This document shows positions 21,720 to 60,389 of a stretch of DNA of 64,000 nt, one piece after another (the first letter of the stretch is position 1; the number at the start of each line of letters is the position of its first letter). Source of the DNA: a bacterium (GTDB lineage: Bacteria; Patescibacteriota; CPR2; UBA1875; CAIMLA01). The stretch spans positions 26,085 to 90,084 of the forward strand of contig JBAXUE010000001.1 of assembly GCA_037129835.1 (NCBI GenBank). The letters run 5' to 3'. The notes beneath the pieces were generated by a model. It did no database searches and was not told the DNA's origin. It saw only the letters and a program-made list of their open reading frames with translations. The position numbers were made by a program, and so were the translations under genes.

Positions 21720-21754
21720 GTATATAAACATACATATATATTGAATAATCGGTA

Positions 21755-21994
21755 TTGCTATACTATAATTTGTTTATGATAAGCAAAGAACTTGAAAATA
21801 AATTAATATTACTTGGGAAAAACTATCCCGGTATTTCAGAAGAGTTAATGAAACGGATAGAGTTTTTTGCTATTCAAATAAATGAGAATCCTAAAGAATT
21901 TGATAACAAGCTCATAGCCCTTATGGGAGCTTTTTCTAATGAAATCGATGAGGCAGACATGGTTCAGTTAAAAAAACAAATTGGAGAAATTTGA
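21755..21994 (+). CDS. hypothetical small protein
   Basis: 79 aa ORF. Weak evidence. Confidence 0.3.
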   Translation: MLYYNLFMISKELENKLILLGKNYPGISEELMKRIEFFAIQINENPKEFDNKLIALMGAFSNEIDEADMVQLKKQIGEI

Positions 21995-24003
21995 TGGCAC
22001 AAGAAGATAATGAGATTCGCGGGGGAAAAACAGAAAAAAGAGAAGCCTCTGCCGAAAAGCCACACATCCAGAGCAAAGAAGAACTAGATAAAGAGATCAA
22101 GGGTGAGATACAAGACAAGTCAGATAGGGCGGAAAGAATAATCCTAGCTGCGCCAATACCGCATTTGGGTGGCGAGGCGGGTCTTGGTTTGGTGGCGGCA
22201 GTTGTCACGGCCAAAGAATGGGTCTCAGAAAAAGCCCCAAACTCTAAAGATGTTGTGAGAAAAGTAGGACTATTTCTTGCTAGTTTGGGTATTGGCGCAG
22301 CCTCTATCGGTGGCATCCAGGCAGGGACGCAAACCGAGAGTAGTAGTGGTGGAGATTATAAACTTTCACCGGAGCCCATAACCGCTATCGCTCCAGAAGG
22401 GACGACGTTCACTGAAACCGATGAACCGATCGCTGTCAGAGTATCCGATATTATGTCTCAAGAAGCTGTTACGCACGAAGGAGTGGTAATGTTTGAGGAT
22501 ATACCTGTCACAGAATCAAACAAAAAAGCTATCGCCGAATCAAAAAAATGGTTAGAAAAAAACGAACATTTACGTGGAGAACAAAGACACGAAGTATTGG
22601 TAGAATATTTGGACCAACAAATGGCTAAAATACAGACAATGATGGAAGGCGGTAGCTCCCAATCAGATATTGTCGAAGTGGCCGCGGAGACTCAGGCCAC
22701 AGCAAATGAATTTAACAGTTTGGTGAAGGCTGGAGATATTACCGACATTTTAGAGGCAGCGGTAAAAGTGGGCCTTGTTTCTCCTGACAAAGCAAAAGCT
22801 GTTGCAAGGGAGTTAACTCAAAAAGGTACAGTCACAGAGATAACTAGGGCTGATGGCTATCAGATAAAAACTGATGATCAGGTTTTTCGACTAACAAAGG
22901 GCGATATGTTCACACAGATAATAGGTAATGCCCCAATGTTTGAGCCGTCGGCGACACCTATTGGGATGCATGAGGGAACAGAGGTCGAAGGTGTTTATGA
23001 TGTCGAAGTAGTTGATCCAGCAAGCGCGGATAAGATCAAGTCAAACGAAGTATTAATGCGTCAGCTGGCAGAGAATAATTGGCCAGAATACCGTGCTTCT
23101 CTGGTGCAAAAAGCGCGACAAGCTGGCGGAGAAATTGATGAAGAGACTGCCAAAGAAGCTTTCATTAAGTTTGTAATAACTCAAGAAAAGCAAACGATAC
23201 CACTAGTAACGAATGACGAAAGAGATGTGCAATTAGACACAAGCGATCTTGAGCTTTTTGGATATCAAATTTCCACAGAATTTCAATTAAAGGAATTATT
23301 GGGGCTGGATATACTCCCAACGATAACCTTTCACGCTGAGAAATTAATTGGCGTTGACGGAAGAATAATCGATATTGGAGGCGACGTAGACGTATTTGGT
23401 GCAAAAATAACTAAAGAAATGTTGTGTAAGGGTAATTTCGGAATATTTCTGCATCTTGCAGATGTAAATATTTATATTCCTCCAGAGGTTGTTAGCAAGT
23501 CTGTAATCACGGGTGATATGAATATCCTTTTACTATTTTTGGCAGCAGCGTTACCTATTGTAGCACTAAGGTTGAGGGCAGAGCCTACGCCGCCAGAAAT
23601 CGTACCGCCAGGTTTTCCACCGGTTAAAGTTCCACCGATAAAGGTTCCCACCCCGAGAATCACTTGGCCAAAGATTCCGCCCACTACGATTGATATTGAA
23701 GGAGAGTTAGGTCTTAGGAGGGTTACTAAGCCAGGAACACCTGGCATAGAAGACGTACCACCAATACCACCTCGAAATCCAAAAGATTTTGATGAGGGCA
23801 GACAAGACATCAGCGGGAAACCAAATAATATTACTCATGGACAAGTTACTACTACTGGCGGTCCTTATACGCCGGGAGGTGTTGAAAAAAACCCTAGTTA
23901 TGGAAGACTAAAAGAGAGTCGGCCAAAAGGGCAAAGAGGTAAATCAGGCGCTAGAAATTATCGAGGCAATCAGAGCGCACAAAAGCAAAATACGGGTAAA
24001 TAA
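21991..24003 (+). CDS. hypothetical membrane-associated protein with proline-rich C-terminal tail
   Basis: 670 aa with several hydrophobic segments. C-terminal PTPPEIVPPGFPPVKVPPIKVPTP. Confidence 0.5.
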   Translation: MMAQEDNEIRGGKTEKREASAEKPHIQSKEELDKEIKGEIQDKSDRAERIILAAPIPHLGGEAGLGLVAAVVTAKEWVSEKAPNSKDVVRKVGLFLASLGIGAASIGGIQAGTQTESSSGGDYKLSPEPITAIAPEGTTFTETDEPIAVRVSDIMSQEAVTHEGVVMFEDIPVTESNKKAIAESKKWLEKNEHLRGEQRHEVLVEYLDQQMAKIQTMMEGGSSQSDIVEVAAETQATANEFNSLVKAGDITDILEAAVKVGLVSPDKAKAVARELTQKGTVTEITRADGYQIKTDDQVFRLTKGDMFTQIIGNAPMFEPSATPIGMHEGTEVEGVYDVEVVDPASADKIKSNEVLMRQLAENNWPEYRASLVQKARQAGGEIDEETAKEAFIKFVITQEKQTIPLVTNDERDVQLDTSDLELFGYQISTEFQLKELLGLDILPTITFHAEKLIGVDGRIIDIGGDVDVFGAKITKEMLCKGNFGIFLHLADVNIYIPPEVVSKSVITGDMNILLLFLAAALPIVALRLRAEPTPPEIVPPGFPPVKVPPIKVPTPRITWPKIPPTTIDIEGELGLRRVTKPGTPGIEDVPPIPPRNPKDFDEGRQDISGKPNNITHGQVTTTGGPYTPGGVEKNPSYGRLKESRPKGQRGKSGARNYRGNQSAQKQNTGK

Positions 24004-24019
24004 TAAAAAGGAGAACATA

Positions 24020-24517
24020 ATGGCAGAACAAAATAGTCCCAGTCCTGAAGGTTCAGAAAACTGGCACCCAACAGAGGCATTTGAGGCAGATGGGCAGAAT
24101 GCAGGTAAAATAAAAGATGTAGAGCTCGCACAATCGCTGGCAGAAAGCGAAGAGAAAATTCGCTATCCAAAAGGACTGAATAGAATATTTTCAGAGATGG
24201 ACCATGAAACCATGATTATAATCGACAGATTAGCTGGTAAATTTTTTCCTGACATAGAGCCAAGAACATTTGAAGAAACCAGAGAAGAAAGGGCAAAAGA
24301 CTTTATCAACGGTATTTTATATCGTGAACTTCTCGACAGAGCTATGGAGAAAAAAGTCAAAGATAATGCCAAGACAAAGGCCTATACTTCTTGGAACGCA
24401 CTTCGAGACGCAACACTAGAAGTAGATCAGGCAATCGAAGAGGCAACCCACGCACGTAGAGAGCAATCTAACATAAGAAATAAAGAAAAAGCGGAAGCTT
24501 TCCGAGAGGCAGCTTAA
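24020..24517 (+). CDS. hypothetical protein
   Basis: 165 aa. RBS aaggag upstream. Confidence 0.45.
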   Translation: MAEQNSPSPEGSENWHPTEAFEADGQNAGKIKDVELAQSLAESEEKIRYPKGLNRIFSEMDHETMIIIDRLAGKFFPDIEPRTFEETREERAKDFINGILYRELLDRAMEKKVKDNAKTKAYTSWNALRDATLEVDQAIEEATHARREQSNIRNKEKAEAFREAA

Positions 24518-24596
24518 GTCTATATACTTTTCAAGGAATTCTAGAATATTGTTCACGGGATAATAAAACAATTTAATGCAGTATTTGAGGCGGTAA

Positions 24597-25784
24597 ATGG
24601 TAGTAATCGATGAACCACAAAACATAGAGAATAGTGATAATGAGCCGAATTTAGAAGGGAATCCACCGCCAGCTATTCCATATCCTACACCTCAAGTTGA
24701 AGCTCTGCCACCCACAACACTACCCGTCGCCGAGTTTAGCAATTTTGGAATATCTAGTAATGAAAGTTTTAGTTCAGAAATAGATGGGTCGTCAAATCAA
24801 CATAAATTTATAAAAAACATGCTGACCTTTTTATTTATTACATTATTTTTATTTTTTTCCGCGAATCTAGTAATATCTATTGCCATTCAACTTATGCTGG
24901 GTCAAATAAGGGGCGATATATCTTTTATGTACAAAGAGTTACCTTTATACTTTTTTCTTCTATTACCAATTTCTGTACTTCCCGTATCCTTGTTTTACAT
25001 TCTGATGAAAGTCAGAAATATGTCCAAAAAATCATGGATGTCGGCTGTAATCTTCCTGCCGATTCTGCTTCTCGCATATTTTTTATGCCTATTTAATCTA
25101 CAACAATTGATGAATAAAATGGCCACGATGGCGGGCGGCACGTCGAATTCTACCATTGGTATCAATAAGATAATATTAGGAGGCGGATCATATATTATAT
25201 TTGCTGCGTTGGCATTATCTGCTTGTATATTAGTTATAAATTACAAAAAATTTATAAATGAGGACAACAAAATACACAAGAAAGGTATAATATTTACCTT
25301 CATATTAGGGTTTTTAACAATTGGAATTACAGTTATTTTTGTTGGCAACGCATGGCTTGGCTCTTACGAAAAACCATTTATTGGTTATTCAAAGGCGGAG
25401 AAAGTACTAGGAAAAAATCCCGTATATTTCAGTTATTTACCAGCGGGTATTATTTTGGATACAGCAATTAGCTTCGTAAGTACAAATACCCTTAATATTT
25501 TATTTAGTAACCCAGACAATCTGGTTGACACGGAAAAGAAGATAATTGTGATCGAAAAAGATAAAGATAAGTATATCGAAAGTAAACCAAACAGCACCTG
25601 GACGACAAAAGACGTCCTTAGAAAAGGAATAAAATATAACATCAGCAGTAAGAATACTGATTCTGATAGCACAATGACTGTTATGAATTTTGAGAAAAAT
25701 AGTTTATCGTTATCGTTGATGACTTTGGATAATACATATATAACTCAAGAAGAATTATTCAAGGTGGCTGAGTCGGCATATTAG
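24597..25784 (+). CDS. polytopic membrane protein
   Basis: 395 aa with at least six hydrophobic segments after a Pro-rich N-terminus. Confidence 0.5.
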   Translation: MVVIDEPQNIENSDNEPNLEGNPPPAIPYPTPQVEALPPTTLPVAEFSNFGISSNESFSSEIDGSSNQHKFIKNMLTFLFITLFLFFSANLVISIAIQLMLGQIRGDISFMYKELPLYFFLLLPISVLPVSLFYILMKVRNMSKKSWMSAVIFLPILLLAYFLCLFNLQQLMNKMATMAGGTSNSTIGINKIILGGGSYIIFAALALSACILVINYKKFINEDNKIHKKGIIFTFILGFLTIGITVIFVGNAWLGSYEKPFIGYSKAEKVLGKNPVYFSYLPAGIILDTAISFVSTNTLNILFSNPDNLVDTEKKIIVIEKDKDKYIESKPNSTWTTKDVLRKGIKYNISSKNTDSDSTMTVMNFEKNSLSLSLMTLDNTYITQEELFKVAESAY

Positions 25785-25785
25785 A

Positions 25786-26427
25786 TTATACAAGCCCTTG
25801 ATTATCGGTAATAATACCCGATACATTCCTCATATTTTGTATTAATGCGAGATCTTCTTTGGTTTTAACATCCCAAATAATTATTTCTTTATCAAATATA
25901 GAAAATAGTAGAGATAATTTATTTAATAAACTATATTTAGGTACAAACAACTCGAAAAAAGGCAGATATAGTAGATTTTTGATAAATCTCTCAGATAACA
26001 ATAAACCTACTTTGATAGAGGGGAATTCCTTATTAATCTTCTTTAATGATTTTGGATAGAAAGAAGAAATAATATATCCTTCGTTTTTAATATATTTTTG
26101 AGTTAAATTAATGACTTCAGCTTCGTATCCAACCTCTTTTAGCTCAATATCTAACTTTATTTTATGAGCTACGAGCTTAAGAGTATCTTCAAGTGTTGGT
26201 ATGTCTGGGTATAGTTTCTGTAATTCGTTTAGCGTTAAATCGCATAGCTTAGCATTCTCTAATTTTTCATCGTGGAAAACTACTAGAGTGCTATCTTTGA
26301 GCCTTCTTACGTCAAGTTCTATTCCATAAAAGCCAGACTTTATCGCCGTTTCAAAGGCAGCGAGGGAATTTTCGGCTTCTGTTTCATGAGCACCCCGATG
26401 TGCATATTTGTTCATTTGTTTTTCCAA
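25786..26427 (-). CDS. glycerophosphodiester phosphodiesterase (GDPD) family
   Basis: YAHRGAHETEAENSL...ELDVRRLKD...VFHD motifs. Confidence 0.75.
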   Translation of the reverse strand: MEKQMNKYAHRGAHETEAENSLAAFETAIKSGFYGIELDVRRLKDSTLVVFHDEKLENAKLCDLTLNELQKLYPDIPTLEDTLKLVAHKIKLDIELKEVGYEAEVINLTQKYIKNEGYIISSFYPKSLKKINKEFPSIKVGLLLSERFIKNLLYLPFFELFVPKYSLLNKLSLLFSIFDKEIIIWDVKTKEDLALIQNMRNVSGIITDNQGLV

Positions 26428-27176
26428 GAAGTCTCAAAGAAAGCCTTGATTGCAAAGAATACCAAAGTGTCGTCGATGGTAAAGCCATAAGGCTCTTTTT
26501 TGTTGTATTTGATAAAGGTAACATTGTCGTCGTAAATGAATATATCCATATTCCGTGGCATCCCCGGCATATCAACATATTTCTTTTTCCATAGTAGCTT
26601 TGCAAGCACTTTTGGGTCGTGTTTCGTGTCTGTATTGATAATCTCTCTTATCTCGATGTTTTTCGCGATTCTCTCAGGCCGAAATTTTCTCTCTAACCAT
26701 GCCTCGAGGTAAGTGTTTTTGCCTTGCTCTGAAAGGATTAACAGTAGTTCACTGGGATGTTTTTTAAGCATGTCTGTATATAGCTTTTGGACTCCTTCTA
26801 TACCGTAAAGAACGTGTATCCCAGGCCGATCCTTGGCTAGGCTGTAGAGGCTTTTTAGTTCTGGCATGGCATCGTTTAGGTCCTCTCGGTAGGTTTCTAA
26901 AAGTCTTATGTTGTCGGTACATAGCTGAGTGAGTATCTCCGGGTCTTCAGGATTATAGCGAATCTTGTTGTGCCTTGCATCTTTCTTTACGACACCTTTC
27001 TTCTCTAGGTTAGCAAGTATGATGTAAGCATTTTGTCGAGAAACTTTCATTCTCTCGGCTATTTCTGGTGGAGTTAGTTCGCCATTTTCTAGAAGGAGCC
27101 GATAGCACTCAGCCTCGCTTTCGGCTAATCCAGCCATTTCAAAGATATCTTTTTTCATAAAAGTAGCATAGCACAT
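26412..27176 (-). CDS. winged-helix transcriptional regulator (TrmB/MarR-like HTH)
   Basis: N-terminal LAESEAECYRLLLENGELTPPEIAERMKVSRQNAYIILANLEKKGVV. Confidence 0.55.
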   Translation of the reverse strand: MCYATFMKKDIFEMAGLAESEAECYRLLLENGELTPPEIAERMKVSRQNAYIILANLEKKGVVKKDARHNKIRYNPEDPEILTQLCTDNIRLLETYREDLNDAMPELKSLYSLAKDRPGIHVLYGIEGVQKLYTDMLKKHPSELLLILSEQGKNTYLEAWLERKFRPERIAKNIEIREIINTDTKHDPKVLAKLLWKKKYVDMPGMPRNMDIFIYDDNVTFIKYNKKEPYGFTIDDTLVFFAIKAFFETSWKNK

Positions 27177-27258
27177 AGTGGGTTAAAATGTCAACAGTCA
27201 AAGTGACAAACCAGTACATTATACCCTTTTCCCATAAGCTCACCAATCAAATATAATA

Positions 27259-27286
27259 TTGACATAGAGCCAAAAGGGAGTATAAT
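27259..27286 (+). promoter_or_regulatory. near-consensus sigma70 promoter (TTGACA-16-TATAAT) reading into the GC-rich island
   Basis: Seen directly. Followed by imperfect palindromes and a GGGCGG/CCGCCC hairpin before the first island gene. Confidence 0.5.
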
Positions 27287-27462
27287 ACATCACTGTAATA
27301 TCTGTCATAGGCAAATGTTACATACCTTGACAATAGAATAATCAAATAGGTGGTACCTACTGCCGACGGGTCGAACGAATTCATCGATCCATCGGTGGTA
27401 GGTAAGGGGCCTACACTAAAACAGAAGGGCGGGGGACCGCCCAGACAACGAAGGGAGTGGCA

Positions 27463-27837
27463 ATGAAAACCACTCTGTACGTAATCGCCGCGTTCGTCGC
27501 GGTGACAGTTCTGATAGTCGTCCTCATGATGTGGACGACCGGCTTGGAGCTCTTTGGGCTCCAGCTGGGAAAGCACGTGACCAACGCGGAAACGCAGGTC
27601 ATGAGGCAGACCCAGCAGTACAGAACCACCCAGGAGACCAAGTTGGCCGACTGGATGGCGTCGTACGATGACGCCGAGAAGCAGATCGCACTCGTAAAGG
27701 ACGATCCCGAGGCTGTCGCCACTCTCCGTGCCAATCAGGCCGGAATTGTGCGTCAGATGAAGGTATTCGTTTCTAGCGGGCAGATCGCGAAGGAGAACGT
27801 GCCGACAGACGTCCAGGAGTTCCTAGCGTCCCACTAG
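27463..27837 (+). CDS. N-terminally membrane-anchored protein (island gene 1)
   Basis: SD gaagggag 5 nt before the ATG. One TM segment then a polar domain. GC about 55%. Confidence 0.45.
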   Translation: MKTTLYVIAAFVAVTVLIVVLMMWTTGLELFGLQLGKHVTNAETQVMRQTQQYRTTQETKLADWMASYDDAEKQIALVKDDPEAVATLRANQAGIVRQMKVFVSSGQIAKENVPTDVQEFLASH

Positions 27838-27856
27838 TTCCGAAGGAGGAACAAAC

Positions 27857-28459
27857 ATGAAGCGTTTCATTACGCTTGCAATCGTTGTTATGCTGGCGCT
27901 TTCGGCTCTTGCTCTCACCGGTTGTGACGAGCAGGTTGACAATTCGTCCGCCACCACCAAGGAGGCGGCGATAGTCAACTCTCAGGATTCGGTCTATGCC
28001 AAGGGGCAGCCGATTCCGAGGTTCGACTACTCGATTCCGAGAGATCTCTTCACACAGTTCTACAAGTTCCAGACTCAGGAGGGCATCAACACTTACAGTG
28101 TGGTGTCTGACATCAACGGCAACGTGTACTATGAGGGCCCCACGATGGGGTACCCTATTCCGTACAACAGCCAGTTGACCAACCCGGAGAAGACCGAGGT
28201 CCATGAGGGCAACTACAATGGCGGAAACGTCACGTTGCCCCAGAGTGAACCGAACGGTCTCTACACTTCGCCGACAACGAACGCCACAATAGTGATGTTC
28301 ATCGATCCGGCGACCGGTAAGCTGATGCCTGTCTACACTGAGCTCAATGTGACGTGCTTCCCCTTTACGGTGAAGAAAACGGCTACAACGAGCACAGTGT
28401 ACCAGAAGAGCGGGTCTCCGACCGCGCTCCTTGCCCCCAAGGGCAAGACGACCAAGTAG
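27857..28459 (+). CDS. lipoprotein (lipobox LALTGC)
   Basis: MKRFITLAIVVMLALSALALTGCDEQ. SD gaaggagg. Confidence 0.55.
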   Translation: MKRFITLAIVVMLALSALALTGCDEQVDNSSATTKEAAIVNSQDSVYAKGQPIPRFDYSIPRDLFTQFYKFQTQEGINTYSVVSDINGNVYYEGPTMGYPIPYNSQLTNPEKTEVHEGNYNGGNVTLPQSEPNGLYTSPTTNATIVMFIDPATGKLMPVYTELNVTCFPFTVKKTATTSTVYQKSGSPTALLAPKGKTTK

Positions 28460-28636
28460 TTCCCCTATAGGGTAAGACCGTAAGGTCGAACCCTACCACC
28501 ACCATGGGGCTCGGTGCATCATTTGCGCCGGGCCTCAGTTCCTTATTATGTATCTTTGTAGATAGGAGGACACCTACCTCTCCTCCTATCCGCACGGATG
28601 CGGAAAACAAAAAACGATCCCCAGAAAGGGGGCACC

Positions 28637-28780
28637 ATGTTCTGGTTTATCCTGAGCTTGGCCGCTGCAGTATTGTGCGGTTGGACTGGCTATAAGGGTA
28701 AGCTCGCGTATAATTTGTTACTCTCTGGAGCTAACTTTTTTTTCGCGGGCTACCAGCTGGCAGTATTGTTGGCTCGTTAA
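28637..28780 (+). CDS. small hydrophobic peptide (about 47 aa), cassette A
   Basis: MFWFILSLAAAVLCGW...GYQLAVLLAR. SD aaggggg. Preceded by the CCGCACGGATGCGG hairpin. Confidence 0.35.
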   Translation: MFWFILSLAAAVLCGWTGYKGKLAYNLLLSGANFFFAGYQLAVLLAR

Positions 28781-29163
28781 CTGACACCGATTGAGGCCAA
28801 AATAGCCTCAGAAACGGAGGGCCAAATTGCCCTAGTACGGGTCCTATCCGCTCGGACCAAAAAATATAGCGGGTAATGTATCCGATGCATTGAGGTGGTT
28901 TATATCGGAATCGATTTATTAAACCACTAAGGCCACCCTTGAGGTGCGTCTGCTTCGGCAGAGAGTGATACTCCCTCATCGACACAGAGATATGACTACT
29001 AACCCACAAGGTTAGTCTCTGAGAAGAAAAGTCGGGGGTGCGTTTGAGTGATGAGCTCAACCACCCCATTCCTATTATCTATTCGGATTATAGAACAACT
29101 TGTTTTATAACCCGCACGGATGCGGGAACAGACAAAAACACCAAAACCTCGGAGGGAGGTAGT

Positions 29164-29325
29164 ATGTTTAGTCTGCACATGGCTATGATCATGGTTGCTC
29201 TGACTGTTTATCAGTTCAGGAGTGCCATGAAAAGTGGTCGTACCTGGGATTGGTTCTGGGCAGTCTGGAATGCCTTTCTTGTGGGGGTTAACCTCATGTT
29301 GGGTATTTACCAGCTGACCAGGTAG
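29164..29325 (+). CDS. small hydrophobic peptide (about 53 aa), cassette B (paralog of A)
   Basis: MFSLHMAMIMVALTV...GIYQLTR. SD ggagggagg. Preceded by CCCGCACGGATGCGGG and followed by the 62-nt repeat. Confidence 0.35.
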   Translation: MFSLHMAMIMVALTVYQFRSAMKSGRTWDWFWAVWNAFLVGVNLMLGIYQLTR

Positions 29326-29338
29326 CCAAACCTGGTAC

Positions 29339-29400
29339 CCGCCTGTCACTGGGCGGTAGTGAAAGTAGTCGCTGGCTGATGTGGCTACAAAGAATACAGT
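29339..29400 (+). repeat. about 62-nt direct repeat copy 1 (CCGCC-tgtcactg-GGCGG hairpin plus conserved tail)
   Basis: About 90% identical to 29642-29703, including a perfect 27-mer atgtggctacaaagaatacagtgaaaa. Confidence 0.6.
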
Positions 29401-29441
29401 GAAAATGCAAATGTACCTTCATTCACCATTAGGAGGTGGAA

Positions 29442-29636
29442 ATGTACCAAGATAAGAACAACGAGGACATTGATATCACGGCTGAGATAATCAGATTCGT
29501 GGTCTCACTGGGACTCTCGTGGGGTCTTATCTGGGGCGTAGGGCGTATTTTCGGGATTGATTTCTCGTCAATTGCCTACGCGGTCTCGGTAGGTACCCTG
29601 GTAGGGATTACCTACAGCCGTTTACGCCGGAGATAA
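29442..29636 (+). CDS. small membrane peptide (about 64 aa)
   Basis: SD aggaggtgg. Followed immediately by repeat copy 2. Confidence 0.35.
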   Translation: MYQDKNNEDIDITAEIIRFVVSLGLSWGLIWGVGRIFGIDFSSIAYAVSVGTLVGITYSRLRRR

Positions 29637-29641
29637 TTCTC

Positions 29642-29703
29642 CCCGCCTGTCACTGGGCGGTATCGAAAGTAGTTGCTAGCTAATGTGGCTACAAAGAATA
29701 CAG
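29642..29703 (+). repeat. about 62-nt direct repeat copy 2
   Basis: See copy 1. Confidence 0.6.
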
Positions 29704-29877
29704 TGAAAAAGCACATAGCCTGACTTCCTGCTTGATTAATCTTGCAGGGAGTTGGGTTGTTCCATTCTCAATTGCGATTAGTAAGCTGAATATATCTTAT
29801 CTGATATAGACAGCTTACTGGCTGTAAAGTCAGTACCATACCGCCCCAGCGGAAAGCTATCCTCAGTAATGAGAAGA

Positions 29878-29932
29878 GTGAATAGTGAAATATGAAGGCG
29901 ACTAAAAATCGTATTCATATTTCACTATTCAC
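29878..29932. repeat. 19-bp perfect inverted repeat gtgaatagtgaaatatgaa / ttcatatttcactattcac with 17-nt spacer
   Basis: Seen directly. Exact reverse-complement arms. Confidence 0.7.
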
Positions 29933-30351
29933 AATGGGGCCCCACACTACAAGGGGAGAGGGGGGATCCTAACAGAAGGAGTCGCTAGCCAAATAGTCTA
30001 GTATCCGACTCTAGAAGTTAGGGCGCAACCAAGTGTAGTCGTCGTTAGCAGTATTGCGACGTAAAATATTCTTCTGCAAATGCCCCCGACGGGGCACAAG
30101 CGGTTTTTACACCACCGCTTAATCAAAAAGTGTAGCGTGGTACGCTACCACGATAAATACATGCTAAGCCCAGCGTTCCTGATTTGGGGGCGCTTGGCCT
30201 TTCCTTGTCACCAGCAAAGCGTTTCCATATATTGTTCGAGATTTGTCGAGAACTACAGTTCATGAATAAATAAGAAACTTTATAAGGGGATACCTTGCTG
30301 CTAACAAGCAGAAGGAAAGCAGGCCAAAATAGCCTGTGATTACGATTCACC

Positions 30352-30591
30352 ATGGAGAGGTGGTGTAGGGAGATGGAACGACTTAGGGATCAGATCTTGA
30401 TCGTGATGATAGGAGTGTATTTCCTCATTGTGATCACTCTGATCGCTAGCGCGGCCGTATTTGTAGCCCAGCTGATGCTGGGGGCAGGTATCTCGATCTT
30501 CTTGATCGTACCGGCCTGTATTTTGACCGGCCTCATGGCGACGGTAATTTTCGTCGCCCTGGTGGTCCTGGTTGATCATATCCACAGTTAG
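30352..30591 (+). CDS. small 2-TM membrane protein
   Basis: Hydrophobic, 79 aa. The long antisense ORF 30340..30951 was rejected. Confidence 0.35.
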   Translation: MERWCREMERLRDQILIVMIGVYFLIVITLIASAAVFVAQLMLGAGISIFLIVPACILTGLMATVIFVALVVLVDHIHS

Positions 30592-30636
30592 GACAGTGGT
30601 CAACCACACGATCAACCTCTGGAAGGAGGTGAACAA

Positions 30637-30819
30637 ATGCCGCTTTGGTTCCATATTGGGGGGGTCATTCTCCTCGAGTTGGCGATCATCGGTATCCCGA
30701 GCATGTTGTTTGGGATGTCGATGGCGCAGGGAAATCGCAATGAACAGATCCTCATTGGATCTCTCGTCGTGATTGGGGCGCTTCTGTCCCCGTTTGTTTT
30801 TGCCATTATGATGGCTTAG
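30637..30819 (+). CDS. small 2-TM membrane protein
   Basis: SD aaggaggtg 5 nt upstream. 60 aa. Confidence 0.4.
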   Translation: MPLWFHIGGVILLELAIIGIPSMLFGMSMAQGNRNEQILIGSLVVIGALLSPFVFAIMMA

Positions 30820-31245
30820 GCGAACGCGCCCTGAGGGCTGGTAACTCCCAGCCATTGGCAACAAAGGAGAGGCATGGACAATAGTCCTAGTTCTCTCAGA
30901 GTGCCAGCGAAACAACGCTGGAATCGTGAGGTGTGCACTCATGAGAAACAAATAATTATTGAGGGCCCAAGTACCGTTGTGAAACGGGATGCGGGCCTTT
31001 TCGCTTATTAGAAGTATAGAGTATTTTGGATAGTATTGTTTTGAAGATCAAATTTAATGAAACCCGATACCTACAACGTAGTTATGGTTCAACTTGTTGA
31101 AGAAATTCAAAATAGAACAGGCTAAAGTTGATACCTCGCCAGCGTTATCACAAGTTTTTTTGTGCTTGAATACATTGACAAATAAGTATAAATACGTTAA
31201 AATAAATAATTGTTTTGGGTATAAAAATCTGGATATTCTCTAGAT

Positions 31246-31965
31246 TTGTGTTCCCAATACAGGGAACAAGTATGCCTCGGAAGGAGGCTGATAGTTGTGT
31301 TTGGTGACACAAACTTGGTAGTCGACGGAACTCTTGTACTGGTAGTCATCTTTAGCTTGGTCGCCATAGCTTTTTCACACCGACGTAGTTATCTTTTGAA
31401 GGCAGAAGTTACCAGGTTGGCAACGGAGGTCTTGCGGATAGGGGCAGACAGAGACAATCATCAAGAGCTGTCTTTGATCGATCCACTAACCGAGGTGGCA
31501 AACAGAAGAGCGATTGGCCTGTATTTGCAGTATGACATGGAGCGCATGTCACGCTATCCTGGGGAATATTCGCTCATGTTTGTAGATATTGATCGCTTCA
31601 AAGCAGTCAATGATACTCGTGGGCATGCTCTCGGGGATGAGATCCTTCTGGCAGTCGCCAAGTCTCTCGAGCTCACCTTTCGCGAAAGTGATACGGTGGG
31701 GCGTTACGGCGGCGATGAATTTGTTGTATTGCTGCCAAATGCAGATCTGTTCGCTTCTAAGGCAAGAGCTGAAGACGCACTAAAAGCAGTTCGCGACATC
31801 GGCGAGGTTTATGACCTCGATATATCCCTGTCTATAGGCATAGTGACTGTGATAGGTGGTCAAGAGATTACTCTCAAAGCACTGTTAGACGCTGCAGACA
31901 AGGGCCTATATTGTGCCAAGAACAAAGGAGGCAACTGCTGGTCGAGAGGATTTGTAGAACTCTAA
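31246..31965 (+). CDS. GGDEF-domain diguanylate cyclase with N-terminal TM segment
   Basis: RYGGDEFVVLL, DPLTEVANRRA, DIDRFKAVND. The likely true start is a GTG/TTG near 31294 after SD ggaagg. Confidence 0.8.
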   Translation: MCSQYREQVCLGRRLIVVFGDTNLVVDGTLVLVVIFSLVAIAFSHRRSYLLKAEVTRLATEVLRIGADRDNHQELSLIDPLTEVANRRAIGLYLQYDMERMSRYPGEYSLMFVDIDRFKAVNDTRGHALGDEILLAVAKSLELTFRESDTVGRYGGDEFVVLLPNADLFASKARAEDALKAVRDIGEVYDLDISLSIGIVTVIGGQEITLKALLDAADKGLYCAKNKGGNCWSRGFVEL

Positions 31966-32020
31966 GGGCGAGGAACGTTTGTAACAGCGAAAGCTAATGC
32001 AAACGGGCTTCGCCCTTTTG
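31964..32020 (+). terminator. long imperfect stem-loop (aagggcga...tcgccctt) plus TTTTG at the right end of the island
   Basis: Nested stems aagggcga/tcgccctt and acgtttg/caaacg. Confidence 0.4.
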
Positions 32021-32038
32021 CATTACAAAATATAAAAA

Positions 32039-33079
32039 TTAAGTCTCGCTTAGTTCGACAATTTTGATGTATTTAATAAGATATACTACCCAGATCACGA
32101 TTAGAACAGCAGAATTCAATTCATAAAAAGTAATAGTAAAGTAATTAACAACGTCATAAAGCACATATAGAGCGACACCAATTGAGAAAAATAAGTAAGA
32201 AATAATATAAAAGCTTCTCTTAAACTTGTTCATGATAAGCTTGGAAAATAGCATAGTTAGTCCGATAACAAGAAAAACCATATTCCCAGCATATATATGT
32301 ATTTGGCTTAGAATCGGTTGATGACCATACGGAATTAGACCTACGATTATGATTAATAAAATAGAAAACTGATAGATTGCTGTTAAAACTTTTAGTCTTA
32401 TTTTGGTAAGCTTATGTCTAATAACAAGCTCTTTAAATAGTGGGACAAGATAAAATCCCATAAGTGATAGTAGTAAACCGGCGAGAACTATAGATGTGTT
32501 ATAAATCCAAAAAGCTCCTTGGTATCCCTTGCCCATTCCAAGAGCGCAGAGTGAACCGGCCCACCAGTGACTATCGCGACTATAGATAGCCGAAATAATA
32601 AAACCCGAAAGAGTAACGGTTAGCAGAAGTATTGATAATTTTTTTGCTTCAAAGTGGAATATTTCAATAGAGAGTACATAAGCCAATATGGCCGAAACTG
32701 CAGATAATAGAATGGTTGCACTGGCTATGTCTGGCGCCAAATCTCTGAAAACTCTTGTAGAAATATCCACCCCAAAGTACCCCATCGTGGCAAACAAAAA
32801 AGCGAATGATAGGCCCAGAATAGGGATGAATATAAACCATTTATCAGTATCAATTGTTTTTGTTTTCTGACATTTTAACCAATAAGATGTAGTTATTGTT
32901 ATGACACAAACCGCAGGAAGACAGAGTGACACCAGATTTCTGATTTCTTGGAATCTTGTTGACGGGAAAAATGAAAAATATATACTAAAGAAAATTACCA
33001 AAGCGCCAAAAATTAATATAGCTATGGATAGCGCTCTTTTTTCGTAATACATGAGTAGACTGCTTGATTTTGTTTCCAT
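32039..33079 (-). CDS. polytopic integral membrane protein
   Basis: 346 aa, about 10 hydrophobic segments. AT-rich. Confidence 0.5.
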   Translation of the reverse strand: METKSSSLLMYYEKRALSIAILIFGALVIFFSIYFSFFPSTRFQEIRNLVSLCLPAVCVITITTSYWLKCQKTKTIDTDKWFIFIPILGLSFAFLFATMGYFGVDISTRVFRDLAPDIASATILLSAVSAILAYVLSIEIFHFEAKKLSILLLTVTLSGFIISAIYSRDSHWWAGSLCALGMGKGYQGAFWIYNTSIVLAGLLLSLMGFYLVPLFKELVIRHKLTKIRLKVLTAIYQFSILLIIIVGLIPYGHQPILSQIHIYAGNMVFLVIGLTMLFSKLIMNKFKRSFYIISYLFFSIGVALYVLYDVVNYFTITFYELNSAVLIVIWVVYLIKYIKIVELSET

Positions 33080-33186
33080 AAAAGTATTATATAGCCAAGT
33101 TAAAACAACGGCTATACGATTTTTTACATTGACTAGAGCTAGTTACGATTCTATAATTTGATTAGTACTAAAATAAAGGTAGGCAA

Positions 33187-33690
33187 ATGACTCCATCCTG
33201 GGATCTATTCATTATTCTTTTCTTTGTTATCATGGGTATCTATGGTTTCCTTTTGGGTCGAGGCCGTGTACTCAATATCTTGATAGATTGCTATGTCGGA
33301 TTGGCAGTTTCTACTGCTGTCGGAGGCTTTGCTTTTGAATACTTAAGCAAAATCACTGAAATATCTCATAGTTTCAACGTGACCATGTTTGGCGCAAAAG
33401 TTTTTGTTTTTGTGGCAGTAGTTTTTATACTTATTATGAACAAAGAGCTTTCTGGCTCTAGTGATGATGCACTCTCTAGCTCGATATATACAGGGATTTA
33501 TGGAGTTCTTACGGCTGGTCTCATTCTTTATAGCGTTTTTTCTTTTATGGGAGATATTCAAAGAGTCGATCTCTTCGCCTCCAGTAGTCTCGCAGTACAA
33601 GTTTATAGATACCAAATAGTTTGGTTAGTAGCGCCGATAGCGGTGGTACTAGTAAGTACAATACTAAATCGAAAGTCTTCTAAGAAATAA
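33187..33690 (+). CDS. CvpA-like membrane protein (putative)
   Basis: 167 aa, 4 TM. N-terminus resembles the CvpA family (LFIILFFVIMGIYGFLLG). Confidence 0.4.
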   Translation: MTPSWDLFIILFFVIMGIYGFLLGRGRVLNILIDCYVGLAVSTAVGGFAFEYLSKITEISHSFNVTMFGAKVFVFVAVVFILIMNKELSGSSDDALSSSIYTGIYGVLTAGLILYSVFSFMGDIQRVDLFASSSLAVQVYRYQIVWLVAPIAVVLVSTILNRKSSKK

Positions 33691-33714
33691 AAAATAACTA
33701 TTCTAGGTGGTGTT

Positions 33715-34581
33715 ATGAATGATCAACAAGATAACTTTGGGAAAGAGCCTTCGCCAGAATTACTAAGGGCTGAAGTTGTGCCTCCAGGTGAAAACCAAGA
33801 AACACCCGAAGATTTGAAATCTGGTGGAGAAAATATCGCCGAAAATAGTAGTGATAATAAGGAATCAGAAATATCTTCTCTTCAAGAAGAGATTCGAGAG
33901 CTAGCCGAGAAATCAAATTCATTGAACGAGCGAATTCTTCGAATTGAAACAGATAAAAAAAATACTTCTGAGCAGATTAACGAGTTGCGTTCTGGTTTGG
34001 GCCTATCGGCAGACAAAGAATTATCAGAGAGCGATAGTGATGAAGAAAGGCTAAAAAGCCTAATCGATTTAAAAGAGATTCTTAGAGACAAAAAAGATAA
34101 ATTATTAGAAGAGCACGGTAATGAAGCAGTGCCAGAGGGAGTTGTAATAGAGAGCGGCGACAATAGTCTTGAAGTCAAGACGTCTATTGCCGAAAGCGAA
34201 GTACCTCCAGATCAATCAGCAGAACAAGAAACAGAGAACAGAAAAAAACTTTTTGAGCGTGGCAAAGAAAACGTTGTTAGAGAGTATGAAAAATATTTAA
34301 GGTCTGATTGGTCAACAAAAGGCGCCATAAATCTTGAAGCCGCTATTTCATTAATGAAAGAAAGAGCCCCCGAGGCTATGGACAAAATGGCGGAAGAATA
34401 TTTGAGCGGTAAAGAGGACGGCAAACTCTGCAAGGAAATATTTATCAAATGGGACACTACACCATGGAGTGAAAGATTTTCTGGTAAGCCAAATGAAATT
34501 AAAAATATGAAAATCAAATTCGATGAAGAAGAAGTTCCAATTACGGCGAGAGACGAAGCCATTGGGACAGATGATAATTAA
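33715..34581 (+). CDS. acidic coiled-coil protein (tandem paralog 1)
   Basis: E/K-rich. The C-terminal half aligns with the next gene (VPEGVVIESGDNSLEVK / IPEGLVIETKNGHFETR; KPNEIKNMKIKFDEEEV / KPNQIRGMELTFDKEKI). Confidence 0.5.
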   Translation: MNDQQDNFGKEPSPELLRAEVVPPGENQETPEDLKSGGENIAENSSDNKESEISSLQEEIRELAEKSNSLNERILRIETDKKNTSEQINELRSGLGLSADKELSESDSDEERLKSLIDLKEILRDKKDKLLEEHGNEAVPEGVVIESGDNSLEVKTSIAESEVPPDQSAEQETENRKKLFERGKENVVREYEKYLRSDWSTKGAINLEAAISLMKERAPEAMDKMAEEYLSGKEDGKLCKEIFIKWDTTPWSERFSGKPNEIKNMKIKFDEEEVPITARDEAIGTDDN

Positions 34582-34601
34582 TTTAAACATAATTTAAAAC
34601 A

Positions 34602-34628
34602 AAAAAAACCGCCTATAGGCGGTTTTTC
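34602..34628 (+). terminator. rho-independent terminator aaaaaaaCCGCCTATAGGCGGttttt
   Basis: Perfect 8-bp stem plus a U-tract. Confidence 0.8.
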
Positions 34629-34681
34629 AATTGCATGTTATGAATTTATAAGCTATCTTTTATTAAAATGAAAGGAAAAAT

Positions 34682-35623
34682 ATGTTAAACGGTAGAGAAG
34701 GAAATGCAAGTATTGAGAAAACAGATAAGACAGTTGAGCCTGCAGAAAAAAATGAATCTGATGTAGTGCCAGAATCTAATTCAGACAAAGATACTGAGGT
34801 AGGGGGAAATGCTAATGGCGAGAAAGAGGCTACACCTCAGCAAGAAATAATAACAGTGCAGAACGATATTGACAGAATAGAACAGCGGATATTACTTCTA
34901 AGGAAAAGCGACGCAGAAACTCAGCGTCAAAAGGACGAGCAATATAGAAACCTAGGCATAGAATCAGAAACAACCACTGCAAAAGGGAATGATGCCGCCG
35001 TTGAGTTATTGGAAGAACAAAAGCTACTCCTGACTGAACATAGAGCCAAGTGGCTAGAAGACTTTGGGATAGAAAAAATACCTGAAGGATTGGTTATAGA
35101 AACAAAAAACGGACATTTCGAAACACGGATTAACCCGTTAGATATAGCAGAAGAAATCTCGGAAGTAGAATCGTCTAAAAATAAAGAAAAAAAAGAAAAG
35201 GAAGCCCTTGTGGAAAGGAAGCAAATTTTAGAAAATTGGAAAGCTAGAGCGATAAAAAAATTCCAAGCCTTTCTTGAAAGTTCTTGGCAGTCTGTTGATG
35301 CGATTAATCTAGAGCTAGCTGTTCACATTTTGGGTATAAAAATACCCAAAGCAATCGATAAAATAGGAGAGGGCTTTGCAAAAGGAGAGGTAGACGATCT
35401 GCCCTCAAATATCTGGTTTAGTTTTAGCGCAAACTCATTTATAGATAGATTGTTAGATAAGCCAAACCAGATACGTGGCATGGAGCTAACTTTTGATAAA
35501 GAAAAAATAAATATGGCAGGAGAAACAGAACTAGTTACAAAGGAAGAAAAGGAAATACAAAAAGATGATAATGAGCAAGATGAGGGTGACTTAACACCTC
35601 AAGAAGCAACTTCGGAGAATTAA
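34682..35623 (+). CDS. acidic coiled-coil protein (tandem paralog 2)
   Basis: See paralog 1. Confidence 0.5.
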   Translation: MLNGREGNASIEKTDKTVEPAEKNESDVVPESNSDKDTEVGGNANGEKEATPQQEIITVQNDIDRIEQRILLLRKSDAETQRQKDEQYRNLGIESETTTAKGNDAAVELLEEQKLLLTEHRAKWLEDFGIEKIPEGLVIETKNGHFETRINPLDIAEEISEVESSKNKEKKEKEALVERKQILENWKARAIKKFQAFLESSWQSVDAINLELAVHILGIKIPKAIDKIGEGFAKGEVDDLPSNIWFSFSANSFIDRLLDKPNQIRGMELTFDKEKINMAGETELVTKEEKEIQKDDNEQDEGDLTPQEATSEN

Positions 35624-35647
35624 ATATACTATTCAATAAACAAATAT

Positions 35648-35672
35648 CGCTTTCCAAAAAAATTGGAAAGCG
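35648..35672. terminator. bidirectional hairpin cgctttcca-aaaaaat-tggaaagcg
   Basis: 9-bp stem. On the minus strand it is followed by a U-rich tract and lies downstream of the tRNA pair. Confidence 0.55.
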
Positions 35673-35677
35673 ATATT

Positions 35678-35752
35678 TGGTGGCTGCGGGTGGATTTGAA
35701 CCACCGACCAACAGCTTATGAGTCTGCTGCTCTACCCCTGAGCTACGCAGCC
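35678..35752 (-). tRNA. tRNA-Met (anticodon CAT; elongator or Ile2-lysidine type)
   Basis: My own fold: GGCUGCG acceptor, GCUC D-stem, anticodon loop CUCAUAA, T-arm GGUGG-UUCAAAU-CCACC, encoded CCA. Confidence 0.8.
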
Positions 35753-35778
35753 GCGAATTATCCGAGAGAGATTTTATT

Positions 35779-35854
35779 TGGTGGGCCCGGTGCGACTCGA
35801 ACGCACGACCATTTGCTTAAAAGGCAATTGCTCTACCAACTGAGCTACAGGCCC
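35779..35854 (-). tRNA. tRNA-Lys (anticodon TTT)
   Basis: My own fold: GGGCCUG acceptor, anticodon stem AUUGC/GCAAU with loop CUUUUAA, T-arm GUGCG-UUCGAGU-CGCAC, CCA. Confidence 0.85.
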
Positions 35855-36027
35855 GCGGATATCTAGGGGTATAAATCTCAAAATTTTCTCAGAATCAAAG
35901 CCGAGCGGCTTTTTACCACAACCAGACGATATTTTGCTAAGTGAGAAAACTTTGAAACATGAGTATTATAACGAAATTTGTGCTCTTGGTCAATGTAAAT
36001 CTAGCATTAGTTTGTTATAATATAAAC

Positions 36028-36381
36028 ATGAAAAAAAATAGATTACTACTCAGTCTACTTATTATCGGGGGTGTTTTGTGTATACTTTATGCCGTCGGTA
36101 ATACCGTTTATGAAAATTATCAAATTCAGCAAGGAATATTAGGTTTAAAAAACGATATTACTAATATGGCTCAAGCGAATAAGGACTTGTCGGCGGAGAT
36201 TCTTTACTATCAGAGCCCTTCGTATCAGGAAAGGATAGCCAGAGAAAAGTTGAATTTACAGAAGCCCGGAGAGAAAGTTATCGTTATCTTACCTGAAGCT
36301 AAAGCGAAGGTGGTTAAAGAAGATCCATACGTAAAGCTTACAAATCCGCAAAAATGGTGGTTATTCTTCTTTAAAGTGTAG
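36028..36381 (+). CDS. septum formation initiator FtsB/DivIC-like
   Basis: N-terminal TM, coiled coil, and the conserved YQERIAREKLNLQKPGEKVIV motif. The track ORF starts at 35959, but the ATG at 36028 follows a TATAAT box. Confidence 0.65.
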   Translation: MKKNRLLLSLLIIGGVLCILYAVGNTVYENYQIQQGILGLKNDITNMAQANKDLSAEILYYQSPSYQERIAREKLNLQKPGEKVIVILPEAKAKVVKEDPYVKLTNPQKWWLFFFKV

Positions 36382-60386: not shown

Positions 60387-60389
60387 TTT

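Follow-up and report, generated by a model that had tools for sequence, protein, structure and literature searches.

A GC-rich island of small genes and structured spacers, in a 64,000-nucleotide stretch of bacterial DNA (contig JBAXUE010000001.1 of assembly GCA_037129835.1, positions 26,085 to 90,084; below, the window, with positions counted from its first letter), is a real accessory locus of the chromosome, set in a hotspot that varies between strains and lies between an hrcA-grpE-dnaK-dnaJ operon and a tRNA cluster. Seven co-oriented open reading frames (ORFs), A to G, lie between a promoter at 27259 and a terminator at about 31,000, predicting a polycistronic RNA of about 3.7 kb, and this RNA is predicted to be about as over-stable as the genome of the single-stranded RNA (ssRNA) phage MS2, coding regions included. 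The reading that we favor, with a probability of about one half, is that of a phage-derived, strain-variable envelope operon whose transcript is over-folded by selection on pairing. The features of the unit are given below, with folding z-scores of leader and spacers computed against dinucleotide shuffles and those of genes against shuffles of synonymous codons that preserve both protein and codon usage; GC3 is the GC content of third codon positions.

27259..27286, + strand: sigma-70 consensus promoter, TTGACA-16-TATAAT, 12/12 positions
27293..27462, + strand: structured 5' leader, folding z = -5.9
27463..27837, + strand: gene A, 124 aa, N-terminal transmembrane anchor, synonymous-shuffle z -5.7
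27857..28459, + strand: gene B, 200-aa lipoprotein with lipobox LTGC, phrog_24725 at E = 1e-18
28460..28636, + strand: spacer 1, folding z = -6.3
28637..28780, + strand: gene C, 47 aa, two hydrophobic segments, phrog_37267 at E = 3.4e-4, GC3 0.56
28781..29163, + strand: spacer 2, 383 nt, noncoding and structured, folding z -5.7 sense and -3.4 antisense
29164..29325, + strand: gene D, 53 aa, two hydrophobic segments, synonymous-shuffle z -5.6
29326..29441, + strand: spacer 3, containing copy 1 of a 75-nt repeat (29338-29412)
29442..29636, + strand: gene E, 64 aa, acidic N-terminus, Gly-rich hydrophobic core, basic C-terminus SRLRRR, synonymous-shuffle z -4.1
29637..30372, + strand: spacer 4, about 715 nt, noncoding and densely folded, folding z = -8.9
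30373..30591, + strand: gene F, 72 aa (79 from an upstream ATG), two hydrophobic segments, synonymous-shuffle z -3.5
30637..30819, + strand: gene G, 60 aa, two hydrophobic segments, dN/dS 0.07, synonymous-shuffle z -4.3
30820..31010, + strand: operon 3' region, terminator hairpin at 30961-31000 followed by TTTTCGCTTATT

Excess folding runs along the whole unit. In 300-nt windows spanning 27.2–31.4 kb, every z-score fell between -2.7 and -8.2, against values near 0 in the host flanks and -6.6 for the tRNA cluster, which served as a positive control. The coding regions share in this signal: all genes except C (-1.3) gave synonymous-shuffle z-scores of -3.5 to -6.5, compared with -0.47 +/- 1.23 for 73 phage B genes, -0.29 +/- 1.07 for 48 host genes, and -5.3, -0.5, and -0.6 for MS2, M13, and phiX174, respectively. 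The excess folding energy over shuffles (MFED) reached 27.0% in the island RNA, 27.8% and 32.0% in the island parts recovered from two sister strains (strain 3 and strain 2), and 29.1% in MS2, against 0.4–5.5% in M13, phiX174, and three host segments. Under plain shuffles, the two halves of the transcript had Z of -13.2 and -11.7, next to -12.0 and -20.0 for the halves of MS2 and +0.3 for a host mRNA. For gene B, the synonymous-shuffle z took values of -6.5 and -4.3; the unrelated alleles A' and B' that replace A and B in strain 3 (contig L021) gave -4.6 and -8.2, and an additional 241-aa gene in strain 2 (contig L020) gave -3.2. Mean window z was -3.5 for the island A–B pair and -4.6 for A'–B', and -1.5 to +0.8 for the copies of A–B found in phages. 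Because unrelated alleles in the sister strains are over-folded as well, over-folding appears to be a property of the locus and not of a gene family. An origin of the folding in single-stranded DNA (ssDNA) phages was rejected, as M13 and phiX174 are not over-folded. Separately, the viral B genes of three contigs (L151, L145, and L138) had synonymous-shuffle z-scores of -4.3, -3.0, and -2.9, unlike other viral B genes.

Fold stability has been proposed as a hallmark of ssRNA phages and put to use in metatranscriptome mining (PMC13082091, a preprint): reported Z values are -19 for MS2, -5 for 23S rRNA, and -1 for an mRNA, contigs with Z <= -15 were strongly enriched for ssRNA phage genomes, and over half of the ultrastable contigs were unclassified. 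It is conceivable, if quite unlikely, that the island RNA itself leads a virus-like life, being packaged, exported, or replicated, either as a satellite or decoy of ssRNA phages or as a vesicle or particle RNA, and that the small membrane proteins would then serve its release or assembly. Several properties fit: the length of about 3.7 kb (3.57 kb in MS2), the GC content of about 50%, an MS2-like fold stability (MFED 27% vs 29%; half-molecule Z -12 to -13), the phage enrichment and the unclassified majority among contigs at Z <= -15 in that preprint, and the lack of over-folding in ssDNA phages. Island segments are near-identical in hosts with a synonymous divergence (dS) of about 0.5, and the host encodes type IV pilus PilB and PilC, pili being the route by which ssRNA phages enter. 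As a lead only, the acidic-hydrophobic-basic layout of E is, we presume, like that of filamentous-phage coat proteins. On the other side, the island has no RNA-dependent RNA polymerase (RdRp), maturation, or coat-fold protein, and the structural model of B matched no levivirus coat in PDB or BFVD; the locus is DNA that carries a sigma-70 promoter, Shine-Dalgarno (SD) sites, and a terminator of the intrinsic type; both A and B belong to double-stranded DNA (dsDNA) phages; neither island motifs nor island peptides were found in IMG/VR; and we know of no precedent. An unlikely but consequential form of the idea is a chromosomal, horizontally spreading "launch pad" for a levivirus-sized, ultrastable RNA with a life of its own as RNA, for which packaging, export in particles or vesicles, a role as satellite or decoy for ssRNA phages that depend on pili, or protection against RNA-guided defenses are conceivable; the membrane micro-proteins, together with A–B, would serve RNA release or host protection. 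In its weaker version, bacteria can put a whole multi-gene mRNA under virus-grade structure selection, making foreign-looking GC islands.

The spacers are strongly folded, mostly unique in sequence, unlike one another, and 116–715 nt long. Spacer 1 holds a terminator-like hairpin (28505-28537), a GGAGGA/TCCTCC hairpin (28561-28590), and CCGCACGGATGCGG (28590-28603), the first two of which recur in a 69%-identical relative (contig L017) that has only A–B and these two hairpins, within AT-rich DNA. Spacer 4 contains copy 2 of the 75-nt repeat (29642-29716) and a hairpin with 24-bp arms (29878-29932). The two repeat copies are 91% identical direct repeats placed after the stop codons of D and E, and shorter hairpins also come in pairs, CCGCACGGATGCGG ahead of C and of D and AGGCCAAAATAGCCT after C and ahead of F; these recurring motifs suggest past duplication or shuffling of cassette borders. 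A preliminary description of this DNA had called the island more than half noncoding and packed with perfect hairpins. The first statement slightly exceeds the measured share of 47–50%. As for the second, only four perfect stems of at least 7 bp are present (0.85 expected), and what holds up is the strong folding of the spacers (z -5.7 to -8.9), so that the hairpin signal is one of overall fold stability, not of perfect palindromes.

That spacers 2 (383 nt) and 4 (715 nt) yield one or more large noncoding RNAs as the main product, with the peptides incidental or merely co-transcribed in the manner of OLE, is a possibility to which we assign a rather low probability. The z-scores of -5.7 and -8.9 favor it, and the spacers are 94–96% conserved between strains with substitutions that avoid stems: in spacer 4, 20 of 44 fall at paired positions against 65% expected (p = 0.007), and pairing is preserved in 13/30 cases on the sense strand and 4/26 on the antisense strand. 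GC-rich islands in AT-rich genomes are, besides, a classic sign of structured RNA genes. Yet the coding regions are equally over-folded, so the signal is not confined to discrete RNA genes; the predicted structures are mainly chains of local hairpins instead of multi-junction folds; no relatives were found outside this population; and no Rfam family matched even at E = 10. In Rfam 15, searched at gathering thresholds across the whole window and at E <=10 across the island, only junk matches of microRNA type appeared, which also disposed of the guess, made from size and GC content, that an rRNA operon or known structured RNA lies here. An alternative genetic code was likewise rejected, as reading through any single stop yields no long ORF in the spacers, and an ORF scan of the spacers gave no credible further small ORFs. 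The spacer 1 hairpin pattern returned 20 matches in metagenomes, 19 of them due to chance and one a contig already known; the island motifs and peptide E returned nothing from IMG/VR, nor did the whole island, as DNA, from phage genomes.

All seven ORFs are probably real genes, because GC3 exceeds GC1 and GC2 in each and the ratio of nonsynonymous to synonymous divergence (dN/dS) is 0.07–0.48. The preliminary description's list of products—a membrane-anchored protein, a lipoprotein with a lipobox, at least five hydrophobic peptides, and a GGDEF cyclase—stands, as do its strong SD sites, which are of GGAGG or GGGAG type ahead of all ORFs. Peptide C is 62% identical in amino acids in strain 2 and absent from strain 3, and D appears to be its distant paralogue; judged from dS of 0.41–0.55 and dN/dS of 0.36–0.48, the D alleles look old and under purifying selection, and positive selection on D was rejected overall at that dN/dS. 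E is 99% conserved across strains; it had no true homologue among 1.84 billion representative proteins and none in phage genomes or viral contigs, its one lead being a weak similarity to Cap15_TM (E = 0.023). F is swapped in sister strains for divergent alleles (36% amino acid identity) with breakpoints at the ORF edges, and G returned only its own cluster among 5.8 billion proteins. By these searches, E and G appear to be orphans. C, D, and F matched no curated family, D, E, and F gave nothing against phage genomes by tblastn, and none of the peptides C–G belonged to a Pfam, PADLOC, or NCBIfam family.

Such a set of peptides might instead form an array of type I toxin-antitoxin-like or abortive-infection peptides, that is, membrane-depolarizing toxins held in a stable mRNA and released by a trigger such as phage infection; we consider this quite improbable. 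Five hydrophobic peptides of 47–72 aa, each with a strong SD site, are what it would predict, as is a strain-variable locus like those of defense islands, and the extreme mRNA stability recalls hok-type toxin mRNAs; the weak Cap15_TM similarity of E and the promoter-like and terminator-like consensus matches antisense to F and G also speak for it. Set against these points are the ribosome-binding sites, which are not sequestered: their predicted accessibility (unpaired probability from -16 to +3) is 0.43–0.55, equal to that of host genes (0.50 +/- 0.16; p = 0.59), so that SD sequestration was rejected. Most of the peptides have two hydrophobic segments, not one; purifying selection acts on G and E, whose expression would be driven, together with that of A and B, by a consensus constitutive promoter; the structure signal is stronger on the sense than on the antisense strand; and no toxin or antitoxin RNA was matched in Pfam, Rfam, PADLOC, or NCBIfam.

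Genes A and B appear to constitute a phage-derived module of a membrane anchor and a lipoprotein that belongs to early replication-type regions. Relatives of B occur in 25 GenBank phages, including Vibrio T5-like, Synechococcus, and Clostridium phages, and in 78 IMG/VR loci, 70 of which (70/78) contain an ORF matched by the A-family profile. Of the 73 IMG/VR loci in which a B ORF could be called, 57 have A beside B, in the order A-B in 43 and B-A in 14, and the island's A is 43% identical to the gene directly upstream of B in one phage contig (L006). Neighbors of the pair in phages include DNA polymerase, ribonucleotide reductase, Erf, exonuclease, RNA ligase, and thymidylate synthase. Lysis families do not feature in the 25 commonest PHROG families of 142 neighboring genes, and in one temperate element the pair sits between Erf and ParB. 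Gene A by itself found only its own cluster in a word-index protein search and nothing in phage genomes by tblastn. The AlphaFold model of B is globular (pLDDT 79.7) and had no PDB match and a single, uncharacterized match among viral structures; searches of solved and viral structures gave nothing informative for A–B. Neither the PADLOC defense models nor NCBIfam assigned any of A–G to a defense system or named family, and homology of A or B to Llp, Cor, Ltp, Imm, Sp, or Sie was not detected in Pfam, PHROG annotation, PADLOC, or PDB. In a side observation, a 3.4-Mb genome contig (L009) encodes at 8001-8555 a lipoprotein of the B family with no clear A partner, amid rve, Mutator-type, and IS240-type transposases and several tyrosine recombinases, a context that we see as a sign that the B family travels on mobile DNA.

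A membrane-anchored gene next to a lipoprotein gene is also the layout of spanins, and A has weak PHROG matches to Rz-like spanins (E = 1e-3 and 0.03). It is thus imaginable, though very unlikely, that the locus is a decayed, functionless prophage fragment—a lysis cassette with A–B as spanin and the peptides as holin-like proteins, or a structural module of a filamentous phage—whose hairpins are leftover regulatory elements. The spanin match of A at E = 1e-3 and the lipoprotein nature of B favor it, together with the common orientation of all genes and a listed inovirus feature, proteins of 30–90 aa with one or two transmembrane segments (PMC6813254). What tells against decay is that the ORFs are intact with dN/dS of 0.07–0.48 and are kept in several strains behind a perfect promoter, and that the structure at synonymous sites implies ongoing selection. 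Nor is there an endolysin, pI-type ATPase, Rep, or integrase; in phages A–B lies among replication, not lysis, genes; M13 and phiX174 are not over-folded; and B is a 200-aa globular protein that occurs in Clostridium phages too. Typical o-spanins are short, unlike B. The spanin reading of A is therefore outweighed by the replication context, by the size of B and its globular model, and by the occurrence of B in phages of hosts that lack an outer membrane; the present host, which looks CPR-like (candidate phyla radiation), probably lacks one as well.

An abrupt change in composition had first drawn attention to the island. GC content climbs from 0.42 to 0.52–0.56 at about 27.3 kb, with the onset of GC-rich DNA at about 27,341 and the island promoter itself AT-rich, remains at 0.45–0.56 as far as about 31.0 kb, dips to 0.39–0.41 at 31.0–31.25 kb, returns to 0.48–0.49 in the GGDEF gene, and is 0.31 past 32.0 kb. 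The jump claimed in the preliminary description is thus confirmed, with the correction that the background is about 0.39 (the window mean) instead of 0.36; the immediate flanks range from 0.29 to 0.38. Codon usage departs from that of the host in the same sense, GC3 being 0.56–0.79 in island ORFs vs 0.26–0.35 in the host. The excess, in the predicted fold, resides in stems: GC is 0.60 among paired and 0.31 among unpaired bases, against 0.45 and 0.30 in the host. The phage relatives nearest to the island's B alleles lie on contigs of 35–38% GC with GC3 of 0.34–0.35. For B' of strain 3, these are genes on phage contigs L164 and L163, at 56% and 53% protein identity (L164 has 38% GC overall and a B gene with GC3 0.35), and windows over both B genes fold no better than shuffles (z about 0); with the B of L017 as query, which is 75% identical to the window's B, the nearest viral relative is on a contig of 35% GC. 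Given excess GC in stems and nearest phage relatives that are AT-rich and unstructured, the GC island would be a footprint of base-pairing selection, and we regard its GC-richness as largely such a footprint. Of the earlier proposal of a foreign-origin module encoding membrane peptides, then, strain variability, non-host codon usage, the small membrane proteins, and the phage families of A and B survive, and GC content as a mark of foreignness has to be revised.

Sister strains, tiled from contigs L002, L003, and L020 (strain 2) and L021 and L022 (strain 3), reveal the locus as a mosaic. Promoter and leader are 99% conserved, spacer 1 93%, E 99%, spacer 4 95%, and G 95%, and the 3' part of spacer 2 and spacer 3 are conserved too. 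Between these segments whole alleles are replaced—A–B (21% and 36% protein identity), F (36%), and GGDEF (35%)—with breakpoints that coincide with the edges of the ORFs (27448/28453, 30366/30609, and 31292/31965). In strain 3, for instance, positions 1-200 of L021 match 27249-27448 at 99% and the genes downstream are replaced. Host genes DnaJ and TrmB have dS of 0.44–0.59, against 0–0.024 for A, B, and E and 0.10 for G, and the low values of A, B, and E relative to the host point to recent exchange between diverged hosts. Two contigs from more distant strains, with TrmB genes at 88–90% nucleotide identity (L201:1-181 and L202:1-180, window ~27177-27339), carry the promoter and end at 27339 and 27298, which is what one would see where the assembly graph is broken by several alternative alleles coexisting downstream; the island promoter is thus kept even where the TrmB gene is only 88–90% identical. 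A search with the TrmB protein for related genomes gave no match.

That the island could be an assembly chimera, with GC-rich foreign reads joined to an AT-rich genome, had been raised from the sharp composition change at both ends, and some contigs from other samples do break at the promoter. We find this hardly credible any longer. Exact-protein look-ups recovered independent copies of the locus, and the island with both junctions is identical in at least five independent assemblies: a 10.5-kb ENA contig from another sample (L010) is 100% identical to window 25898-36366, across both junctions, which four assemblies from different pipelines (ENA, JGI, and Logan) reproduce as well, and contigs L011–L016, assembled from further ENA, JGI, and Logan samples, show complete or almost complete identity over parts of the island. 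The diverged sister strains share the junctions, and the contig breaks are accounted for by alternative alleles in the population.

The boundaries of the unit, and the genes that adjoin it, are given by the following features.

26412..27176, - strand: TrmB-like winged-helix regulator, Pfam TrmB at E = 2.8e-15, GC3 0.44
30874-31011, + strand: 45-aa ORF, GC3 0.43 and no GC3 signal, probably noncoding
31175..31203, + strand: promoter of the GGDEF gene, TTGACA-17-TAAAAT, 11/12 positions
31297..31965, + strand: putative GGDEF diguanylate cyclase, one N-terminal hydrophobic segment, Pfam E = 3e-39, TIGR00254 E = 1e-38
31964..32025, strand not assigned: hairpin terminator (inverted repeat I8), common to the GGDEF gene and a convergent gene for a 346-aa membrane protein

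The consensus promoter that the preliminary description placed at the head of the island is indeed there, and a hairpin with a T tract at 30961-31005 closes the A–G unit. Beyond it, an AT-rich gap (31011-31296, GC 0.33) holds the promoter of the GGDEF gene, whose product, with RYGGDEF intact and RESD just upstream, is predicted to be a diguanylate cyclase. With a promoter of its own and no over-folding (synonymous-shuffle z only -1.6), this gene, swapped for a 35%-identical allele in strain 2, forms a separate unit; the sequence thus argues for two transcription units, A–G (from promoter 27259 to the terminator at ~31,000) and GGDEF. The TrmB-like gene is transcribed divergently from the island promoter, and its dS against strain 2 (0.59) is at host level, marking it as apparent host backbone; its product is a candidate regulator of the A–G operon.

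To the left of the island lies hrcA-grpE-dnaK-dnaJ, and ruvCAB lies further right. The preliminary description saw no flanking tRNA, which is partly right: genes for tRNA-Met, tRNA-Lys, and tRNA-Met at 35.7–36.9 kb lie 3.7 kb to the right of the island, at the edge of the variable region, which in the sister strain reaches them. Direct repeats flanking the island were not found. In strain 2 (L002), dnaJ (window 20612-21718, 91% identical) adjoins the TrmB gene directly, and window 21720-26411 is a second strain-specific insertion, of normal GC and normal folding, that encodes proteins of 670, 165, and 395 aa without a Pfam domain and a GDPD phosphodiesterase. Strain 2 has in turn an extra 1.27-kb insert (L020:2244-3519, between window 31007 and 31158), with GC 0.55 and over-folded at z -3.2 and -5.6; it encodes the 241-aa HExxH protein already mentioned (pattern HELGHxxG ... 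C..C..M ... CPDC), which looks archaemetzincin-like. Within window 33715-35623, a 288-aa acidic and a 313-aa protein are missing in strain 2, where a 167-aa gene nearly abuts tRNA-Met, and from this absence the flexible region extends to the tRNA cluster at 35.7–36.9 kb. Elsewhere, the window encodes a NiFe hydrogenase large subunit (12258-13517), ComEC, DUF2298, and type IV pilus PilC and PilB proteins (coordinates for hydrogenase, ComEC, DUF2298, and pilus genes: 12258-13517, 39178-40680, 40683-42776, and 59178-62273), along with many ORFs that have no Pfam domain, a gene set resembling that of CPR/Patescibacteria. A DnaK scan of GTDB species genomes was uninformative on the lineage, the best match reaching only 67% and the matches being spread over different phyla.

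Compared with known systems, the locus fails the defining tests of a prophage, an integron, an inovirus, a levivirus, a type I toxin-antitoxin system, a spanin, and every Rfam family, and we file it as a strain-variable, phage-derived accessory islet. The earlier judgment that it does not look like a standard prophage or insertion sequence was sound: Pfam and PHROG scans of ORFs of at least 150 aa found no integrase, recombinase, or transposase over ~16.8–48.6 kb. An integron IntI is not encoded beside the island, where the divergent neighbor is the TrmB-like regulator, and reading the sequence at 27448, 28453, 30366, and 30609 showed no attC core sites (RYYYAAC ... GTTRRRY). The pI-type morphogenesis ATPase is the sole universal marker of inoviruses (PMC6813254); the island has no Zot or FtsK-HerA match and no ORF above 222 aa, and its hydrophobic C–G proteins of 47–72 aa are an inovirus-like feature that alone is not diagnostic. 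Other absences from the island are ORFs or domains for ssRNA phage RdRp, maturation, and coat proteins, Rfam antitoxin RNAs, type I toxin families (in Pfam, NCBIfam, or PADLOC), and, by the covariance models of Rfam 15, HEARO, group I and II introns, and ribozymes.

Partial likenesses are nevertheless instructive. Phage moron and exclusion modules (T5 Llp, phi80/N15 Cor, TP-J34 Ltp, T4 Imm, and Sp) similarly combine a phage-family lipoprotein with a small membrane-anchored protein, and relatives of A–B lie in early replication-type regions of phages, with the island copy chromosomal behind a strong promoter; unlike them, A–B has no sequence or fold similarity to characterized exclusion proteins and shares its transcript with five micro-proteins and about 1.8 kb of structured spacers. 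In the hyperplastic regions of T4-type phages, small ORFs without an assigned function are swapped between near relatives through recombination in conserved noncoding stem-loop elements (PeSL; PMC2839356, PMC4122927). The island resembles these in that close relatives differ by replaced segments the size of an ORF that lie between conserved noncoding elements, and in hairpin motifs that recur at ORF borders (the 75-nt repeat, CCGCACGGATGCGG, and AGGCCAAAATAGCCT, two copies each). It differs in being chromosomal, in its long (116–715 nt), mostly unique spacers that do not each carry a promoter, in having only two-copy short motifs and no many-copy cassette of promoter plus terminator, and in over-folded coding regions, which are not described for PeSL. 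With Leviviricetes, the island shares length, GC content, over-folding, selection at synonymous sites, and equally negative z on both strands (PMC13082091), but it is chromosomal DNA whose signals for transcription and translation are bacterial, lacks genes for RdRp, maturation, and coat proteins, and draws its identifiable genes from dsDNA phages. As with rRNA, RNase P, OLE, GOLLD, and ROOL RNAs, its GC excess lies in stems within a genome of ~39% GC, and its size is that of an rRNA operon; unlike them, it has no Rfam match, and half of its RNA is coding, with open ribosome-binding sites. RNAIII/delta-hemolysin of S. aureus and hok-type mRNAs are likewise stable folded RNAs encoding small membrane-active peptides, yet the island RNA is 7–10x longer, with seven ORFs, open SD sites, no family match, and no antitoxin RNA found. 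We did not find a description of the feature that sets the locus apart, fold selection of RNA-virus grade across a multi-gene bacterial transcript.

In the envelope-operon reading that we favor, the A–G proteins would remodel the cell envelope, most likely keeping phages from adsorbing or their DNA from entering, in the way known from phage lipoproteins and small membrane proteins, and envelope modification or phage exclusion is accordingly the function that our analysis points to as likeliest. Pervasive structure would give a compact, long-lived transcript, or shelter it from RNases or RNA-guided surveillance, with ribosome-binding sites as accessible as those of normal genes. The conserved spacers would act as homology arms for recombination that exchanges alleles under frequency-dependent selection, and the GGDEF cyclase would be an adjacent, independently transcribed gene, also swappable. 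Several points weigh against this account. A and B match no characterized exclusion protein, PADLOC model, NCBIfam model, or solved structure; we know of no bacterial mRNA that needs such folding, and stability is a weak reason for it. All of the folding is predicted, and covariation comes from four close sequences, with no fully compensatory pair in spacer 4. Structure explains only part of the GC excess, in that unpaired third codon positions are 0.52 GC vs about 0.30 in the host; the nearest relatives found are not the donors, and the donor may have been GC-richer. Constraint at synonymous sites could depress dS of A, B, and E and so overstate the recency of transfer, and the assignment of the host to a phylum derives from gene content alone.

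GC-rich islands with non-host codons are usually read as recent imports; here, much of that signal would come from base-pairing selection, a trap for island-finding methods that also opens a new search route, genome scans for blocks of high excess folding energy. DNA-encoded ultrastable transcripts could account for some of the unclassified contigs of PMC13082091, and the locus raises the question of what pressure besides RNA replication or packaging yields such folding. The A–B pair defines a two-gene envelope module, unstudied so far, that is widespread in tailed phages and domesticated in a little-known bacterial lineage, and the cassette-like exchange of alleles between conserved RNA elements offers a possible model for how small membrane proteins diversify.

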